A stretch of DNA of 30,132 bases, taken from contig JAPYTY010000001.1 in NCBI GenBank assembly GCA_029942065.1, positions 1 to 30,132 on the forward strand, written 5' to 3'. Shown piece after piece: positions 4,905 to 14,961 of the stretch. The stretch's first letter is position 1; the number at the start of each line of letters is the position of its first letter. The DNA comes from Acidobacteriota bacterium. Its GTDB lineage: Bacteria; Acidobacteriota; UBA6911; RPQK01; JADFOI01. The notes beneath the pieces were generated by a model that saw nothing but the letters and a program-made list of their open reading frames with translations, ran no database searches and was not told the DNA's origin. The position numbers and the translations under genes were made by a program.

Positions 4905-5627
4905 TTACAAATTCGTTGCGCTCCCCCAGTGCGCTTCGCACTCGTGCCGGAGTCGATCCATCTCGCTCTGGGCCTGCTCCATTCCGTTGGCCTCATCCTG
5001 CCCAGGCAAAATAGTCAGAGGTCGGCCGATCTTCACCAGGACTCGGCTGAAAGGCTTTGGGATGCGAAAGCCGTCCCAGCTCTTGAGGCTCCAAAAGCTC
5101 TTGGGTTGGATGTGAAAGGGCAGCATGGATGCTCCCGTCTTGCGCGACAGCCACACCGGACCCTTCTTCAACTTGTAAGCGGGGCCCCTTGGGCCGTCTG
5201 CAGTGAAAGCGACGTCTCGCCCTTGCCGGATGCAGCGCCTCAATTCAAGGAGCGCAGAGGCCGCGCCCCGACTACTGGAACCTCGCGCCGAGCCATAGCC
5301 GAATCTCCTGATAATTCCAGCAATGGCTTCCCCATCGAAATGCCTGCTGGTGAGCACGACAATACTTCTAGATCGCCAGAGATGAGTTGCAGAGAAAATT
5401 TGGTTGTGCCAGAAACAATAGATAATAGGGTTTTTCTGCTTGGACTCCTGGAAGTGTTTCCAGCCTTCAATCTGGTAGCGCAGGGTTGATCCAACGACCC
5501 AAACCAGCAACCATCCCAGGAAGCTGAGCAGGGAAATTCCGACTCGCTGCTGCCAGGTGAAGGTCGTCACGGCTTTTCCGCCCTTCCCTTGCCGATCGGG
5601 TCCCTCGCCTTCCATCATGGCCCACAT
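4905..5627 (-). CDS. Lysophospholipid acyltransferase-superfamily protein (DUF374-like)
   Basis: FWHNQ, LTSRHFDGEAIA, RGSSSRG, ADGPRGP, SWDGFRIPKPFS. The start could be 5618 or 5615. Confidence 0.88.
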   Translation of the reverse strand: MWAMMEGEGPDRQGKGGKAVTTFTWQQRVGISLLSFLGWLLVWVVGSTLRYQIEGWKHFQESKQKNPIIYCFWHNQIFSATHLWRSRSIVVLTSRHFDGEAIAGIIRRFGYGSARGSSSRGAASALLELRRCIRQGRDVAFTADGPRGPAYKLKKGPVWLSRKTGASMLPFHIQPKSFWSLKSWDGFRIPKPFSRVLVKIGRPLTILPGQDEANGMEQAQSEMDRLRHECEAHWGSATNL

Positions 5628-8095: not shown

Positions 8096-8751
8096 AGAAT
8101 AATTGCCAGGTCGAGCGTGAGGAGATGGTGTCAAGCCAGCTGGAAAAAAGAGGCATCCGTGAGGCCCGGGTCCTCGAGGCCTTCAGGGGGGTCCCGAGGC
8201 ATGAGTTCGTTCCTGGCCACCTGAAGGGCCGGGCCTACGCCGATGGCCCTCTTCCACTCGACCAGGGGCAAGCAATTAGCCAGCCTTACATGGTGGCCAT
8301 CATGACTCAGGCGGCCAGGCTGAGCCCGGGTCAGCGAGTTCTTGAAATTGGCACCGGCAGCGGCTACCAGTCGGCCATCCTGGCCGAAATGGGCATGGAG
8401 GTGTACACCATCGAGCGGATGGCAGTCCTCAGCAAGCAGGCCAAGGGAACGCTGCAGCGCCTGGGCTACCATGGAGTGCGCGCCAAGGTGGGAGACGGCA
8501 CCCTGGGCTGGAAGGACGAAGCCCCTTTCGATGCCGTACTGGTGACCGCTGCTGCCCCGGAGCTCCCCGCACCCCTGCTGGATCAGCTGGAACTGGGAGG
8601 CCGATTGGTGATCCCCCTGGAAGAAGGCCCCTCCCAGGTACTTTACGTGATCACACGTCGTCAGAGCGATTTCCATAGGAATCGGGGCGAACGCTGCACC
8701 TTCGTGCCCTTGATCGGTGAGTATGGCTGGGAAAAAGACCCGCGACCCTAG
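8092..8751 (+). CDS. pcm: Protein-L-isoaspartate O-methyltransferase
   Basis: VPRHEFVP, QAISQPYMVA, LEIGTGSGYQ, GDGTLGW, APFDAVLVTAA, FVPLIG; ATGA overlap with rnhB. Confidence 0.96.
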   Translation: MKNNCQVEREEMVSSQLEKRGIREARVLEAFRGVPRHEFVPGHLKGRAYADGPLPLDQGQAISQPYMVAIMTQAARLSPGQRVLEIGTGSGYQSAILAEMGMEVYTIERMAVLSKQAKGTLQRLGYHGVRAKVGDGTLGWKDEAPFDAVLVTAAAPELPAPLLDQLELGGRLVIPLEEGPSQVLYVITRRQSDFHRNRGERCTFVPLIGEYGWEKDPRP

Positions 8752-8903
8752 CCTGAATTATGCATGGGTCGTCTTCGTTCCTCAGATGAAGGCGGCGTCA
8801 CGAAGGGCCGCAGGCGCCGCGGTGACAAGGCGGTCAGTGCGGATGGATGCGGGCTGCCCCGGATGGTGCGTTATTCTCGCAGCGAAGCGGCGAGGAATCG
8901 GGC

Positions 8904-9595
8904 TCAAGGAATCAATTTGAAGGTGCCCTGGTGGCTTCCGAAGTTGGCGGTGTCGGCCTGAGAAGCCGAGACCACAACACGGAGAACTTCATGGTCCTTC
9001 CGGGCTCTGGGCGTGCGAAACTGACAGTCAGGCACATTGGGTCGGTCGGCATATTGGAGCGTGATCTCATCCAGGGGCTCCTCGTTGTGATAAGGGGTTG
9101 CGAAAACGCCTACCTTGTCCGCATCCCAGAGCCCACCGGGCTCAATCAGGCAGCCTCAGAGAAGCCTCGCCGATGCCTCCAGATGAACCGGGTCATCGGG
9201 GCCGAACACCTCCACGCTGGCCGGGGTAGGGTTGTCCAGAGCCCTGCGCGAACCCAACGCAATCTGATCGGACTGGAACCCGGAAAGTTTCGCAACCAAT
9301 CCGCATGCACTCAAATTGAGCGAGTCGGCGACACCCAGCGACGAGGCGCCCCCAAAGGGCCCGGCCGTGATGCTACTGCTCGCACCCATGGAAGAAAGGC
9401 CGCCGTACTGACTGGAGGATACGGAAGCATCCATGGGCTGAAGGGCATCCTGTGCACCCCGGCCTGCGTTCAGCTGAAAACTAAAGGTGCCGCCGCTGGT
9501 GGCGTACTCCTAACGCACCACGCTGCCCTGCTCTTGTGGCCAACCCCGGATCCCGAAGAGGCAAAAAACAGCAGCGCGAAAACCTTGCCTTTCAT
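8904..9595 (-). pseudogene. Disrupted gene for an exported protein of about 230 codons (1-nt frameshift, in-frame TAG, in-frame TGA)
   Basis: ATG 9595 gives MKGKVFALLFF. Adding one T to the T6 run (9563-9568) yields a signal-like MKGKVFALLFFCLFGIRGWPQEQ. One frame then runs to TGA 8906-8904, interrupted only by TAG 9512-9510 and TGA 9158-9156. The 290-aa + strand ORF lies in the same codon register (antisense shadow). No family recognised. Confidence 0.6.
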
Positions 9596-9835
9596 GGCCC
9601 TACCCCGTCTATTCAGCATTGCAATCCCTCGCCGTTACTACAGCCCTGGGCTGTTGTCTAGCTCGGCCTGCGAGCGCCCTCCCAGGCGGGTCGATTCGGC
9701 CACAACCTCCAGGCAGTGAAATGAATCTTGCTTTTGCATTGCGTTCATTGCACCAATGCGTTTTGATTTGCTTGATTACCTCTTGTCCTCTAAAAAGGCG
9801 GCTTCGCAAAGGGTTACGGTGGGCCGCAAGGAATC

Positions 9836-9925
<90 letters not shown>

Positions 9926-10012: not shown

Positions 10013-13000
10013 TTACTTTCCGTCGCGGGAAAGCTTGCCCAGTTCGACAACCGCTTGGTGGGCTTGGGCCGCAACCTGTCGATAGCGCTCATCCTGAGAG
10101 CCCTGGGCAGCGCCGTCATCGGCCTCGACCTTGATGGCGGGCCCCAAGAACACCTCGATCGGTGTGGGCCGAGGGAAAGTTGCGCCTGGCGGCATGGCCC
10201 GATAGGCGCCCTGGATGTAGATGGGGACAATGGGTGCGCCCGATTCGGCTGCGATCAGCCCTATCCCCGGCTTGAAGTCCTGGATACGGCCCGTCCTGGA
10301 GCGCGTCCCTTCTGGAAAGATAAGTACCGGCTCGCCCTCCGCCAGGATGGCCGTCACCAGGCGCAGGCTTGCCAAGGAGGCCTCCTCCCTCTCCACGGGC
10401 ACAAGGTTGAGAAGCGCGCTGAGCGCCCAACCCTTGAATGTATGGTCAAAGAAGTAGTCCCTGGCCCCTAAAACGTGCAGCCTCGTCGCCTCGTCGGGGC
10501 CCAGCGCGACACCCAGGGAGGCGATGACGGCCGCGGCATCCAGGTGGCTACTATGATTGGCGGCGATGATGTAGGACTGGCTGCGGGGAAAATGCTCCGG
10601 GTTGTGCAGCCGTAGCTGGAAATAGGACTTGTACAGGCCCTTGAGGGTCGCGAAAGAGGTGCGCAACAAAAATTGGTCGGTCGCCGAACGCTTGGCGTAG
10701 GGCCGAGCCGAACGGATCTGAATGGGCCGAGGGGCGGCCTCGTCGGCCGGCGACAACGATCGGGCTTGTTCCAGAACCTGTCCCGCCGTCTGCAGGCTGG
10801 CTGCCACCTGGTCTGGGACCGACACTCCCAAAGTTCGCTCCACGTACAGCAGGAATTCGATGGCCATGAGCGAATCGAAACCAAGATCGGTATAGAGGTG
10901 GCTCTTGTCGCCGATTTCCTGAACAGGGATCCCGGAAAGTCGACTCAATTCCGCCAGTATTTTTTCTTTCTGGCTCCGAGGCGACCCCGTCTGCGGCGCC
11001 CCCCGGGTGGCGGTAGTTCGATTCTGGCGCTGTTGCGACATCAATTTCCGGCGGACCTCTTCTCTGTTGATTTCTCCCGAGTCGGTTCGGGGAAGGGGTT
11101 CCATCCAGGTATGGACGTGTTGGAGTCTATGGTAGCTGGGTAATTCCCTGGCCATCTTTTGAATTTCCTTCTGCAGTTCCTTTTTTGCTTCGCCAGGATC
11201 ACCTCCTGCTCGGGCCGCCAGGGTGGGCACCACGGCTGCATGGATGTCCTCCGTTAAACCGCTTGAAATCCCTATCACGCACACCTCTTCGATGGAGGAA
11301 ATGCTGCGGTAAATTGCCTCCAGGTCAACTGGGTAAACGTTCTTTCCGGCCCCAGTAACAATAACGTCCTTCTTTCGTCCCGTTATGTAGACGTATCCAT
11401 CGGCGTCAATCCAGCCCAGATCTCCGGTGTGCAACCATCCGTCTTTGATCGCCTTTCGGGTGGCGACTGGGTTCTTGTAATACCCCTTCATGAGGCTGGG
11501 GCTGCGCGCGATGATTTCCCCGGCGCCCTCCCGGTCCGGGGAAGAAATCCTCAATTCGACGCCCGGAAGGGGTTTGCCAACTGAGCCCTTTCGGCTCCGG
11601 TGCAGGGGATTGACGGTCAGCACGGGCGCAGTTTCAGTTAATCCGTATCCTTCGTAAATCGGCATTCCCAGGCCCTGGAAGTCTTCGTAGAGCTCTTTTC
11701 CCAGCGCCGAGCCTCCGCTCACAAAGAGCCTGATCTGTCCGCCGAACTCGCGGTGGATTCGAGCAAACAATTGACGGCCAACATTTTTCCCGAGTTTTTT
11801 TCCCACCGACAAGCTCAACTGCTTGGAGGTACCCAGGAGATTCGATTTCAGAGCGGATTTGGGCGCCTTCAGCAAGCGCCTCTCTGTATCCTCCCGGATC
11901 AACGCATAAAGAGTGGGCACTCCGAGCATGCAGGTTGCGCCCACCTCTTTCATGATTCCAAGGATCACCTTGGGCTTCAGGGAGTTCAGGTAGGTCACTG
12001 TGGCGCCGGCATTCAACGCCATCAGGAATCCGCAGGTAAACTCCAGGGCGTGGTTCAGGGGTAGAACTGAAAGCAATTGGTCGCTCTCCGAAGCAGGAAG
12101 GTAGCGATTGACGCCCAGTAGGTTGTTGATGAAGTTGCGGTGGGTGTGGATCGCCCCCTTGGGATCAACGATAGTGCTATTGGTAAAAATTATCGATGCC
12201 GGATCATCAGGGCCCACCTCAACTTTGCCTGGGTTGGCTGAGGCCAGCTTTCCAGTGCTGCGAGGGTACTCCTCGCGGCCAAAGGGCGTGCACTCCCGAT
12301 CGACATTGAGTAGCCTTACGGGAACCTCCGAACTTTCGTTGGCCTCCAGGCCATCAGTGGGGAGCCTTGACAGGCAATGTTCGGAGGTTAGGACAGCCCG
12401 AGCCTCCGTGAACCGAATAACCGACCAGACTTCCCTGTGCCAAGTTTGTGCGTCCAGGGGGACGACAATTACACCTATCGATACCGCCCCGAGATACGCC
12501 ATTCCCCACTCGGGCTTGTTCTCTGAGAAAAGAATGATCCGGTCGCCCTTCTTCAGTCCGGCTCGCTGCAGAGTTCCCCCGATTTCCCGAGCGGCCGCGC
12601 CCAGGGCCCTGTAAGTGAATTTCTGCCAGACTCCGTCGCGCTTGACCTGCAGGGCGGTTTTGTCGGGAAACTTGTCGGCCGCTCGGTCGAGCAGGGCATT
12701 GATGGTGGGGTTATCTCTCGTCGCATCCCGCTCCACCTCCAGAACTCCCGCGCCTTCCAGCTTAAGGATGTGTTTTTTGACTCCGGGTATGTGGACATTT
12801 TGGATATAGTGCCGCCAATTCAGCGAGCTTATATCAAAACCCAGAACCCTCTTCTCGTCTTCGCTGAGGGAGTGGAATAACTCCTGAGTGTTCTTTACTT
12901 CGAAGCGGCAACTGAGGTTGAGGTAGGGCTCATAGATCTGCCCATAATAATAAAGTCTGTCGTAGGCGGCCCGGACGGCGGACACTCTTCGCTTGAACTT

Positions 13001-14338
13001 GGAAAGGGTTGGGGTCGCGGGGAGTCTGGCCAACGCCGCTTCCACTATTTGCAGGGGGACTCTCCGGAGGTGATGCTGAATTCGAAAGGTGGTTGGATTG
13101 TGGAATTTGAGCGGCTTGATGTGGATAGGGCTTCCTGTTTTGTCGGCCATGGGGTTCTTTCGGAAATAGCCGTAAACTAGGTCGTGGAGTTCACCCAGGG
13201 TGACTGGGTTGGTGTCTCCAGTGGCCACCTGGTAAATCTGTAGGCCACCCCGCCTCAAGGCGATCGGAATGGCAGCCAAAAGAGCGTTGACAACCATATC
13301 CACCGGAATTAAGTCCAGGGCTATGTTGGCATCCAGGGGCAGCGCTCGAAGGCGACCTTTCCCGATGGCGACAATGAGTGGGTCGGCCATGCGTAACCCG
13401 TCGAGCCAACCCGGGGTTGGCTCAGCGATACTACTCTCGATTACGGAAGGACGGATAATTACAGTGGGTGCGCCGTTACGCCGTTGCAATACCATTTGCT
13501 CCCCGATAGCCTTGGTGTAGGTGTAGGTATCGTTCCACCCTCTTTGTTGGGCCCACTTCATACCCTCGGTGGCAAGTTGCTCCTGTAGCCACCTACTTTG
13601 CAAGCTCTCTAGTTTGTCCTGGTGGTCACCTCTCCGGCCCGACCTTCGGGCGCGCTTGAGTAACAGCTCTTTGGTAGTCGGCTGATCGACCTCGTTTTTC
13701 AACCTAGTTATCTTGCCTTTGAGTAGTTCGATTTCCCGATTGACATCACTGAACTTTCGGAGGGGGTAGGCTTCATTTAACTCCTCGCCCGTAGCCAGGT
13801 GGTGCATGGTTTCGGGCGCATTCTGGTTGGTCGCACCAGCCACATAGGCTGTAGAGACGTGAACTAAAAGGGCGTCCTTACAGGAATTAGTGAATTCAGC
13901 TACCCGGGCAGCGCTCAAACTGTTCCCTTCGAGGGCGGTGTCTAGGGGTGCGTCAAAGGAAACCACAGCAGCGCTATGGATCACAATATCAATCTCTTCG
14001 CGTAATTGACTGCAAACGCCCGCCTCCAACCCAAGTTTTTCGCTCAAGATATCGCCTGAGACAACAACTAGTTTTTCCTCCAAGAATTTCTTTGTGTCAA
14101 CTCCGTGAGATTGGTAGAGGCGGTCAAAAACACTCGAACCCAGTAACTCTTTTTCGAGGCGCTCTTGAGCGTTCACAATTCGGCCGCCGAGTTCCTGTTT
14201 GGGCCGGATCAAGATATAGACCCGCTTGACACCCGCAGCCAACCAAAGAATTTTCTCCACCAGTGGTTGCCCTAGGAAGCCGGTCGCCCCGGTGACGAGA
14301 ATCACTTTCCCCTCTAGCGCCTCCGTCACTCTATTCAT
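10013..14338 (-). CDS. ElbD-like multidomain lipid enzyme: fatty acyl reductase + AMP-binding domain + ACP + acyltransferase (1441 aa)
   Basis: TGATGFLG and Y272-TYT-K276 (extended SDR/FAR); GYGLTE, GWLHTGDLG, GRKKD (ANL adenylation fold); DLGFDS1156L (phosphopantetheine Ser); NH1262SSHLD and FPEGTRS (PlsC-type acyltransferase). Confidence 0.9.
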   Translation of the reverse strand: MNRVTEALEGKVILVTGATGFLGQPLVEKILWLAAGVKRVYILIRPKQELGGRIVNAQERLEKELLGSSVFDRLYQSHGVDTKKFLEEKLVVVSGDILSEKLGLEAGVCSQLREEIDIVIHSAAVVSFDAPLDTALEGNSLSAARVAEFTNSCKDALLVHVSTAYVAGATNQNAPETMHHLATGEELNEAYPLRKFSDVNREIELLKGKITRLKNEVDQPTTKELLLKRARRSGRRGDHQDKLESLQSRWLQEQLATEGMKWAQQRGWNDTYTYTKAIGEQMVLQRRNGAPTVIIRPSVIESSIAEPTPGWLDGLRMADPLIVAIGKGRLRALPLDANIALDLIPVDMVVNALLAAIPIALRRGGLQIYQVATGDTNPVTLGELHDLVYGYFRKNPMADKTGSPIHIKPLKFHNPTTFRIQHHLRRVPLQIVEAALARLPATPTLSKFKRRVSAVRAAYDRLYYYGQIYEPYLNLSCRFEVKNTQELFHSLSEDEKRVLGFDISSLNWRHYIQNVHIPGVKKHILKLEGAGVLEVERDATRDNPTINALLDRAADKFPDKTALQVKRDGVWQKFTYRALGAAAREIGGTLQRAGLKKGDRIILFSENKPEWGMAYLGAVSIGVIVVPLDAQTWHREVWSVIRFTEARAVLTSEHCLSRLPTDGLEANESSEVPVRLLNVDRECTPFGREEYPRSTGKLASANPGKVEVGPDDPASIIFTNSTIVDPKGAIHTHRNFINNLLGVNRYLPASESDQLLSVLPLNHALEFTCGFLMALNAGATVTYLNSLKPKVILGIMKEVGATCMLGVPTLYALIREDTERRLLKAPKSALKSNLLGTSKQLSLSVGKKLGKNVGRQLFARIHREFGGQIRLFVSGGSALGKELYEDFQGLGMPIYEGYGLTETAPVLTVNPLHRSRKGSVGKPLPGVELRISSPDREGAGEIIARSPSLMKGYYKNPVATRKAIKDGWLHTGDLGWIDADGYVYITGRKKDVIVTGAGKNVYPVDLEAIYRSISSIEEVCVIGISSGLTEDIHAAVVPTLAARAGGDPGEAKKELQKEIQKMARELPSYHRLQHVHTWMEPLPRTDSGEINREEVRRKLMSQQRQNRTTATRGAPQTGSPRSQKEKILAELSRLSGIPVQEIGDKSHLYTDLGFDSLMAIEFLLYVERTLGVSVPDQVAASLQTAGQVLEQARSLSPADEAAPRPIQIRSARPYAKRSATDQFLLRTSFATLKGLYKSYFQLRLHNPEHFPRSQSYIIAANHSSHLDAAAVIASLGVALGPDEATRLHVLGARDYFFDHTFKGWALSALLNLVPVEREEASLASLRLVTAILAEGEPVLIFPEGTRSRTGRIQDFKPGIGLIAAESGAPIVPIYIQGAYRAMPPGATFPRPTPIEVFLGPAIKVEADDGAAQGSQDERYRQVAAQAHQAVVELGKLSRDGK

Positions 14339-14545: not shown

Positions 14546-14644
14546 GGAGGTACTTCCCGCCTGGTGACGGGCCTGGTCTTCAAAACCAGTCGAACTGCAG
14601 CGAGAGTTGTGGTTGGTGGGTTCGATTCCCATGTACCTCCGCCA
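14546..14644 (+). tRNA. selC: tRNA-Sec (anticodon TCA), 99 nt
   Basis: 8-bp acceptor GGAGGTAC/GTACCTCC; 6-bp D-stem with TGGT loop (one C.A mismatch); CTGGT-CT TCA AA-ACCAG; 9-bp variable arm with GAGA loop; GTGGG TTCGATT CCCAT; G73 then CCA. Confidence 0.96.
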
Positions 14645-14961
14645 GAGTGTGGGGATGGACTCATTAGTTCTAGGTATAAGATAAATCAACTAGTTATCTT
14701 TTTATAAGAAGTAGTAGTCTCTGTGTATTTGTTGAAAAAACCGCCAATCTGCGCCAGTCCGGGTCTGACCGCCTGGAACAACATGTGAATAATAATTTAA
14801 TAGGGGGTGGGAAGTTAAGAGGCAAGGCGGTAAACGGATCCGAGTGCCGGTAATCCACAGTCGTCCTTCAATAGAGCCCAGATAAAGAGAGCAAACTAGA
14901 AGACTTGAGTGGGGTTTGCCACTGTTGAAATCTTCTGGGCGCGAACCCTTGAGGTGAAAAG
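14645..14961. other. Candidate chromosomal replication origin (oriC)
   Basis: 14661-14740 is 20/80 G+C. Trio-like AAG AAG TAG TAG (14706-14717), a 4-nt spacer, then overlapping DnaA-box-like TGTGTATTT/TGTTGAAAA (14722-14738). Further boxes: TGTGAATAA (14784-14792) and TAATCCACA (14851-14859). rpmH, parAB, parS and mnmG are nearby. Confidence 0.65.

Follow-up and report, generated by a model that had tools for sequence, protein, structure and literature searches.

The closest described counterpart of the gene analyzed here is elbD of Myxococcus (MXAN_1528; Lorenzen et al. 2014, as reviewed in PMC9131029), which belongs to the elbA-E operon and encodes a protein with an N-terminal FAR1-like fatty acyl reductase (FAR) domain followed by acyl-CoA synthetase (ACS), acyl carrier protein (ACP), and AGPAT-like domains; the ACS and ACP activities of ElbD have been demonstrated in vitro (PMC9131029). 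Another described system includes FARAT, a FAR-GNPAT fusion that accompanies AGPS and is represented by M. xanthus MXAN_1675 and Tetrahymena FARAT (PMC13012113). How alkyl ether lipids are formed in bacteria without PlsA/Ger, and what the actual job of ElbD is, remain questions in the field, and both bear on the reading of bacterial ether lipids and of biomarkers of the branched glycerol dialkyl glycerol tetraether (brGDGT) type. Here, we describe an ElbD-like four-domain gene in a 30,132-nucleotide stretch of DNA from an Acidobacteriota bacterium (GenBank assembly GCA_029942065.1, contig JAPYTY010000001.1; hereafter, the window), which constitutes the entire contig C1 of a 2.9-Mb metagenome-assembled genome (MAG). 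We propose, with moderate confidence, that the product of this gene is a functional lipid enzyme of the ElbD family, from a distinct clade found mainly in Acidobacteriota, and that it would provide AGPS, whose gene lies elsewhere in the same MAG, with both a fatty alcohol and an acylated acceptor for the formation of 1-O-alkyl glycerolipids. The MAG is 91.5% complete and consists of 648 contigs, so the absences reported below are provisional.

Homologs of ElbD in Acidobacteriota, including stand-alone ones and ones that co-occur with agps, are already known. Two MAG studies describe cluster families with elbD plus elbB only, as well as stand-alone elbD, in MAGs of Acidobacteriota, Poribacteria, and Latescibacterota (bioRxiv 10.64898/2026.06.23.733905), and elbD matches in Acidobacteria MAGs from the Black Sea (PMC11868695). 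These loci resemble the one described here in being stand-alone or reduced and in the presence of elbD and agps in one MAG; the difference is that both studies take elbD and agps as parallel pathways. The passages of them that were consulted contain no report of a clade split, of motif loss, of a fixed origin-proximal position, or of either/or partners. What is added here is the split of ElbD-like proteins into two clades, the loss of adenylation motifs in one of them, the fixed origin-proximal position of the gene, and its either/or partners, among them an unlinked AGPS-SDR pair.

Domain architecture and conserved motifs

The gene is a single intact open reading frame (ORF) with an ATG start, and Pfam confirms the original prediction of FAR, adenylation-fold, ACP, and PlsC-type domains in one 1441-aa chain:

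10013..14338, minus strand: ElbD-like four-domain gene, 1441 aa (FAR, ANL, ACP, PlsC-type acyltransferase); ORF listing, translation, Pfam, full-length homologs
13283..14296, minus strand: FAR NAD(P)-binding domain, residues 15-352; PF07993 (NAD_binding_4), E 1e-63
12761..12979, minus strand: FAR C-terminal 'Sterile' domain (FAR_C), residues 454-526; PF03015, E 4e-13
11045..12691, minus strand: ANL (AMP-binding) domain, N- and C-subdomains, residues 550-1098; PF00501, E 4e-74
12155..12184, minus strand: degenerate A3 P-loop, residues 719-728; motif alignments, solved malonyl-CoA synthetase
11063..11092, minus strand: A10 motif with Glu replacing the catalytic Lys, residues 1083-1092; motif alignments
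10772..10966, minus strand: ACP (PP-binding) domain, residues 1125-1189; PF00550, E 2e-12
10214..10615, minus strand: PlsC/LPLAT-type acyltransferase domain, residues 1242-1375; PF01553, E 3e-24

Within the ANL domain, Pfam assigns residues 550-954 to the AMP-binding part and residues 991-1098 to the C-terminal subdomain. Searched against 5.8 billion proteins, the 1441-aa protein has more than 2,200 matches; the best 120 of these share the identical domain set at 95-100% coverage and 53-80% identity, and the named homologs among these 120 come from Acidobacteriota MAGs and one Gemmatimonadota. Full-length homologs of identical domain composition show that the ORF is real in its start, its end, and its fusion, and they rule out a pseudogene or a mis-assembled fusion. 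Across the 120 homologs, mean identity is 56-67% in the four domains versus 15-41% in the linkers.

The motifs of the FAR domain are intact, namely, the Rossmann GxxGxxG (residues 17-23), the Ser-containing motif (160-166), and YxxxK (272-276), and all three are conserved in both clades of ElbD-like proteins defined below. The ACP domain has its phosphopantetheine serine, Ser1156, within a DSL motif, and a search of the genome for a phosphopantetheinyl transferase, proposed together with the original prediction, yielded a single enzyme of the AcpS type (C6:5117-5464). The acyltransferase domain contains the HX4D block (residues 1262-1267) and the EGTR block (1341-1347); its acceptor would be dihydroxyacetone phosphate (DHAP), glycerol-3-phosphate, or a lyso-lipid, a choice that lies beyond the reach of sequence.

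Comparison with described enzymes

As the myxobacterial reference, we used the ElbD ortholog of Myxococcus sp. Y35 (L050:8980-13413), whose locus encodes ElbA (a short-chain dehydrogenase/reductase (SDR)), ElbB (HAD), ElbC (Lar_N domain), ElbD (1477 aa), and ElbE (SDR), that is, the published elbA-E set. In a tblastn comparison, the window protein matches this ElbD with 32% identity over ElbD residues 13-1447 (625 bits). By Pfam, the two proteins, of 1477 and 1441 aa, contain the identical four domains in the same order, and their FAR, ACP, and acyltransferase motifs are identical in kind; in addition, relatives of the window protein are encoded in clusters with elbB-like and elbC-like genes. 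The differences are that the window protein belongs to a separate clade and has non-canonical A3 and A10 motifs, that its genome lacks elbA, elbB, elbC, and elbE, with AGPS-SDR as the likely partner, and that the clusters of its relatives include a zinc-dependent alcohol dehydrogenase (Zn-ADH) as the dehydrogenase instead of an ElbE-type SDR.

FARAT, represented in our comparison by L125:8404-11007, also joins reductase and acyltransferase in a single chain and occurs in an AGPS-bearing genome, and its FAR domain is homologous to that of the window protein (29-34% identity). However, the window protein has ANL and ACP domains inserted between the reductase and the acyltransferase, its acyltransferase is of the PlsC type and shows no BLAST similarity to the acyltransferase part of FARAT, and its gene is not adjacent to AGPS in its own genome. 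After the ElbD-like clusters, the nearest neighbors by features are the carboxylic acid reductases (A-T-R), in which an ANL domain, a carrier domain, and a NAD_binding_4 reductase act on a tethered acyl group, but these enzymes have a different domain order, no acyltransferase, and a reductase without FAR_C.

Two clades of ElbD-like proteins

A tree of 58 four-domain proteins, built from the ANL-ACP-acyltransferase part and rooted with 12 FAR-less paralogs (a quick LG+G4 tree with branch support from the Shimodaira-Hasegawa-like approximate likelihood ratio test (SH-aLRT) only), separates two clades. Clade II (SH-aLRT 100) includes the ElbD proteins of Myxococcus, Archangium, and Hyalangium together with proteins from Planctomycetota and from Pyrinomonadaceae; we infer that the latter are the SD4 homologs of the literature. 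Clade I (SH-aLRT 98) consists of the window protein, its acidobacterial relatives, and one Fervidibacterota protein. In this orthology check, which had been proposed with the original prediction, the window protein thus does not group with the myxobacterial and SD4 ElbD: the ElbD-like identity stands with respect to domain architecture and full-length homology but not with respect to clade membership or canonical adenylation motifs. Counts of 'elbD homologs' obtained with BLAST merge these two deep clades, only one of which contains the characterized enzyme.

An altered adenylation domain

In the window protein, ANL motifs A5 (GYGxTE), A7 (TGD), and A8 (GRxKD) are intact. The A3 P-loop reads TNSTIVDPKG, with both glycines of the canonical TSGTTGxPKG replaced, a register that is confirmed by alignment with the P-loop of a solved malonyl-CoA synthetase, and in A10, Glu takes the place of Lys. 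The domain thus keeps the AMP/ribose and hinge motifs but has lost the P-loop glycines and the A10 lysine; with these elements for the handling of ATP and pyrophosphate altered, the ACP may be loaded by adenylation or by another route.

The alteration is a property of the clade. The last P-loop glycine is missing in all sampled proteins of clade I but one, and in the crown group of this clade, the position of the A10 lysine is variable. In clade II, the canonical A3 P-loop is present in 32 of the 32 sampled proteins and the A10 lysine in 30 of the 32; the respective counts for the FAR-less paralogs are 11 of 12 and 12 of 12. The window genome itself (G000) encodes a second, FAR-less ANL-ACP-acyltransferase, with the gene split by contig ends (C63:4-1143, minus strand, and C354:3-1472, plus strand; L004 and L003), and orthologs of about 900 aa are found in nearly every genome of the order. 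Both this FAR-less copy and a FadD-like protein of the same genome keep canonical A3 and A10 motifs.

The loss of both P-loop glycines and of the A10 lysine in the window protein, together with the free variation of A10 across the crown clade when clade II and the FAR-less paralogs stay canonical, suggests another reading, which we hold to be a serious possibility but short of probable: the ANL domain could be dead for adenylation, and the protein would then be a FAR plus an acyltransferase fed by outside acyl-ACP or acyl-CoA, with the ANL-ACP part as a scaffold or an ATP-independent transacylase. The pattern of conservation argues against a dead domain. Over the 120 homologs, mean identity is 65% in ANL, 58% in FAR, and 63% in the acyltransferase, and near-invariant columns account for 27-37% of these three domains (28% of ANL) and for 12% of ACP; being as conserved as FAR and the acyltransferase, the ANL domain is under selection. 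The A5, A7, and A8 motifs and the ACP serine are also retained, and the last P-loop glycine is likewise missing from some active fatty acyl-AMP ligases, which speaks against reading its loss as loss of function. The altered motifs of the clade pose a simple biochemical question on a soluble protein.

AGPS-SDR and elb-like partner genes

The original prediction described the gene as having no partner genes. This holds within the window, where no lipid gene adjoins it, but not for the genome as a whole, nor for the relatives, in which either AGPS-SDR or HAD, Zn-ADH, and elbC-like genes lie nearby. In the window genome, C17:12305-14080 encodes a 592-aa AGPS that matches guinea-pig AGPS (4BBY) with E 1.4e-159 over residues 15-581; the next match to a protein other than AGPS has E 4e-20. 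The stretches that we take to contain Arg419, Tyr578, and the HHH loop of AGPS are conserved in the alignment. An SDR gene lies directly downstream, the two genes together spanning C17:11472-14080, and this AGPS-SDR pairing is retained in all seven genomes examined. In the complete genome of a member of the same family (G004), the elbD-like gene, tRNA-Ser, AGPS, and SDR lie on one strand, and in eight genomes from two families (G004, G014, G038, G247, G248, G249, G250, and G251), AGPS is located 1.1-7.8 kb from the elbD-like gene. A selenoprotein AGPS in G004 was considered and rejected, the flagged in-frame TGA being the stop codon; this rejection covers G004 only, and TGA or TAG was flagged also in the AGPS genes of G020, G250, and G037.

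The window genome encodes no strong FAR besides the ElbD-like protein, and both there and in five complete AGPS-bearing relatives, this protein is the sole match to Myxococcus FARAT. No GNPAT-type acyltransferase was found, and a PlsA/Ger-type DUF2229 protein was searched for in the window genome and not found. In this order, AGPS has no FAR at its disposal other than the ElbD-like protein, which counts in favor of the model in which this protein feeds AGPS.

As the original prediction had it for the immediate surroundings, elb genes are absent, and this extends to the MAG: elbB, elbC, and elbE are missing from both, with no ElbB-like HAD or ElbC-like Lar_N protein and only generic SDR matches to ElbA and ElbE detected in the genome. 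Similarly, no elb partner genes were found in the complete G004 genome. The order is represented by 57 genomes with a completeness of 90% or more; one copy of the four-domain gene is present in 55 of them, and in 17, an ElbB-like HAD gene lies directly downstream of it; a Zn-ADH gene follows the HAD gene in all six loci examined. An ElbC-like protein is encoded in 21 of the 57 genomes, namely, 15 of the 17 with HAD, all five of one AGPS-bearing family, and G012. All four genes, elbD-like, HAD, Zn-ADH, and elbC-like, are contiguous in G021:C1:440232-448181. In the AGPS-bearing family of five genomes, the ElbC-like gene comes directly after the elbD-like gene; this form of the locus, with AGPS elsewhere and no HAD, is represented by family f9 (for example, G033:C374:13335-19319). 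Overall, ElbC-like proteins and AGPS show a negative association, although one family has both.

Two further members of the window family show variations on these loci. In one (G007), an IS481-type transposase gene lies between the Zn-ADH and elbC-like genes of an elb-like cluster (L114:4935-5882). The other (G012, 96% complete) is without the four-domain gene, AGPS, and HAD and keeps an ElbC-like (Lar_N) protein that is 49% identical to Myxococcus ElbC.

The distribution of the two partner sets over the 55 genomes with the gene is suggestive of near mutual exclusion: AGPS occurs without HAD in 37 and HAD without AGPS in 16, whereas G019 has both and G237 neither. These counts include one unpublished genome (G017) with HAD and ElbC and without AGPS; when it is omitted, the 54 remaining genomes divide as 37, 15, 1, and 1. 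None of the conclusions rests on this genome, which the tree does not include. A FastTree phylogeny of 53 of the proteins requires at least six changes of state for AGPS and at least six for HAD, and in six independent contrasts, HAD changes opposite to AGPS in four to five and in the same direction in none (sign test p ~0.06, a value close to the best attainable with six pairs, with the gene tree standing in for the species tree and with related genomes being non-independent). A near-universal ElbD-like gene with switching partners, AGPS-SDR versus HAD, Zn-ADH, and ElbC-like, points to the possible seat of the ether-forming chemistry, and the either/or genotypes within one order are natural material for lipidomic comparison.

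The relatives in which HAD, ADH, and elbC-like genes lie downstream and AGPS is missing indicate that an AGPS-free mode exists in this clade. They lend some weight to the possibility that the window protein follows the AGPS-independent Elb route, as in myxobacteria, and makes an alkyl-ether precursor with unlinked helpers, AGPS-SDR being a parallel pathway; published work, too, assigns elbD and agps to two pathways (PMC9131029; bioRxiv 10.64898/2026.06.23.733905). We regard this as improbable for the window genome given the lack of the ElbB-like and ElbC-like proteins and of more than generic SDR matches for ElbA and ElbE, the absence of those genes from the complete G004 genome as well, the near mutual exclusion of AGPS and HAD, and the lack of any other FAR that would provide AGPS with alcohol.

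Proposed role in ether lipid synthesis

In the model that we favor, the ElbD-like protein would take the role of FARAT beside AGPS, as in Myxococcus and protists (PMC13012113). A fatty acyl group would be tethered as a thioester on the in-cis ACP, which would receive its phosphopantetheine arm from AcpS. Using NAD(P)H, the N-terminal FAR domain would reduce the tethered acyl and so produce a fatty aldehyde or alcohol, and the PlsC-type domain at the C-terminus would acylate a phosphate acceptor derived from glycerol, either DHAP or a lyso-lipid. The AGPS encoded on C17 would then replace the acyl of acyl-DHAP by the fatty alcohol, giving alkyl-DHAP, whose keto group the SDR would reduce to yield 1-O-alkyl-glycerol-3-phosphate, the precursor of ether glycerolipids; the fatty acid freed by AGPS could be recaptured by the ANL domain. 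The ether-lipid role put forward in the original prediction is better supported by the AGPS-SDR context, although the protein would probably act through AGPS and not as an autonomous, stand-alone ElbD.

Several observations weigh against this model. The ElbD and AGPS routes of M. xanthus are genetically separable, and ElbD works without AGPS (PMC9131029). One third of the relatives carry the gene without AGPS, so the protein is not dependent on AGPS in general. Conversely, a genome of the same genus (G003, 90% complete) has AGPS-SDR, with no FAR or four-domain gene detectable. With A3 and A10 degenerate, it is doubtful that the protein loads itself in an ATP-dependent manner. The acyltransferase is PlsC-like and not GNPAT-like, so DHAP as the acceptor is a guess. 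Finally, Pontiella species carry elbD homologs, and ether lipids were not detected in them (PMC11868695).

The Pontiella case is also compatible with a function outside ether lipid synthesis, in which the protein would produce fatty aldehyde or alcohol for wax-type lipids or free alcohols, or else would re-acylate lysolipids in the manner of Aas, an acyl-ACP synthetase fused to an acyltransferase. FAR domains are known in wax and alcohol pathways, and partial NCBIfam matches of the window protein include acyl-[ACP]--phospholipid O-acyltransferase models. All NCBIfam matches, however, are far below the cut-offs; the wax-type option, raised as an alternative in the original prediction, gained no support, with WS/DGAT not found in a search in which the control genomes gave no match either; in relatives, the gene sits in elb-like clusters or beside AGPS-SDR; and the FAR-less ANL-ACP-acyltransferase paralog, with its canonical motifs, is already there for an Aas-like job. 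A non-ether function thus appears quite unlikely.

The switching of partners and the altered adenylation motifs can be combined in a broader and rather speculative scheme, which we put forward with low confidence. ElbD-type proteins might be a universal front end that provides an alcohol derived from a tethered acyl group along with an acyl donor, with the ether bond formed by interchangeable back ends, either AGPS-SDR or the ElbB-type HAD, a dehydrogenase, and the LarA-like ElbC; in addition, the ANL domain of the clade might have given up ATP-dependent adenylation and become, for example, an AMP-dependent acyl-CoA:ACP transacylase. If true, this scheme would mean that the ether-forming step of the elb pathway, long unknown, is carried out by proteins other than ElbD.

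Inheritance and genomic setting

Two tRNA genes flank the ElbD-like gene, an arrangement that was noticed in the original prediction and is confirmed by ARAGORN:

9836..9925, minus strand: tRNA-Ser(GCU), downstream landmark; flanks the gene in relatives too
14546..14644, plus strand: tRNA-Sec(UCA), divergent upstream landmark; adjoins the gene in relatives of several families

The tRNA-Ser gene is 88 nt downstream of the ORF and the tRNA-Sec gene 208 nt upstream. The other neighbors in the window are housekeeping and origin-proximal genes, namely, prfA, prmC, folE, rnhB, pcm, pheA, rnpA, yidC, jag, mnmE, parAB, and mnmG. The same block, mnmG-parAB-mnmE-jag-yidC-rnpA, pheA, tRNA-Sec, elbD-like, tRNA-Ser, and pcm-rnhB, recurs in six more genomes, which represent five families, so the two tRNAs mark an ancestral site and not an island. 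This shared arrangement, together with uniform GC content (0.55-0.62 in the ElbD-like gene, in line with the remainder of the contig), rules out horizontal transfer of the gene as an island between the two tRNAs. The assembly of another genome (G001) does not contain the locus at all, with yidC and rnpA likewise missing.

Of 201 genomes sampled across the phylum, the 16 that belong to the order of the window all have the four-domain protein, with 52-62% identity. One further family has such a protein at 39% identity, and two families have clade II-like four-domain proteins at 31-34% identity; none was found in the other approximately 170 genomes of the sample. The elbD-like gene belongs to the core of its order, in which it is inherited vertically and keeps a fixed position close to the origin.

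Other features of the window

A promoter-like site lies at 10003-9974, near tRNA-Ser(GCU). Downstream of this tRNA is a 1-kb gap (8832-9836) that contains no gene with a Pfam family; it is occupied by a 290-aa plus-strand ORF without a family match and by a minus-strand frame with an in-frame TGA, neither of which matched the 1.5-kb flanks of relatives. A remnant of AGPS was looked for in the gap, and none was found. In G004 and G014, AGPS-SDR is located at this very position, and the gap may be a scar of the relocation of AGPS-SDR.

On the other side of the ElbD-like gene, a low-GC intergenic stretch (14645-14960) extends from tRNA-Sec to pheA, in the origin-type neighborhood of rnpA, yidC, jag, mnmE, parAB, and mnmG. 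Farther away, at 4905-5627 on the minus strand, a gene for a DUF374 protein, presumably lysophospholipid-acyltransferase-like, adjoins a prephenate-dehydrogenase-like gene; the pair is syntenic in G016, and no link of the DUF374 protein to the ElbD-like gene was found. Right behind the stop codon of pcm, at 8748-8832, there is a dispersed repeat of about 85 bp that has approximately 60 BLAST matches across the window genome and many in genomes of the same genus and that resembles a REP- or MITE-like element.

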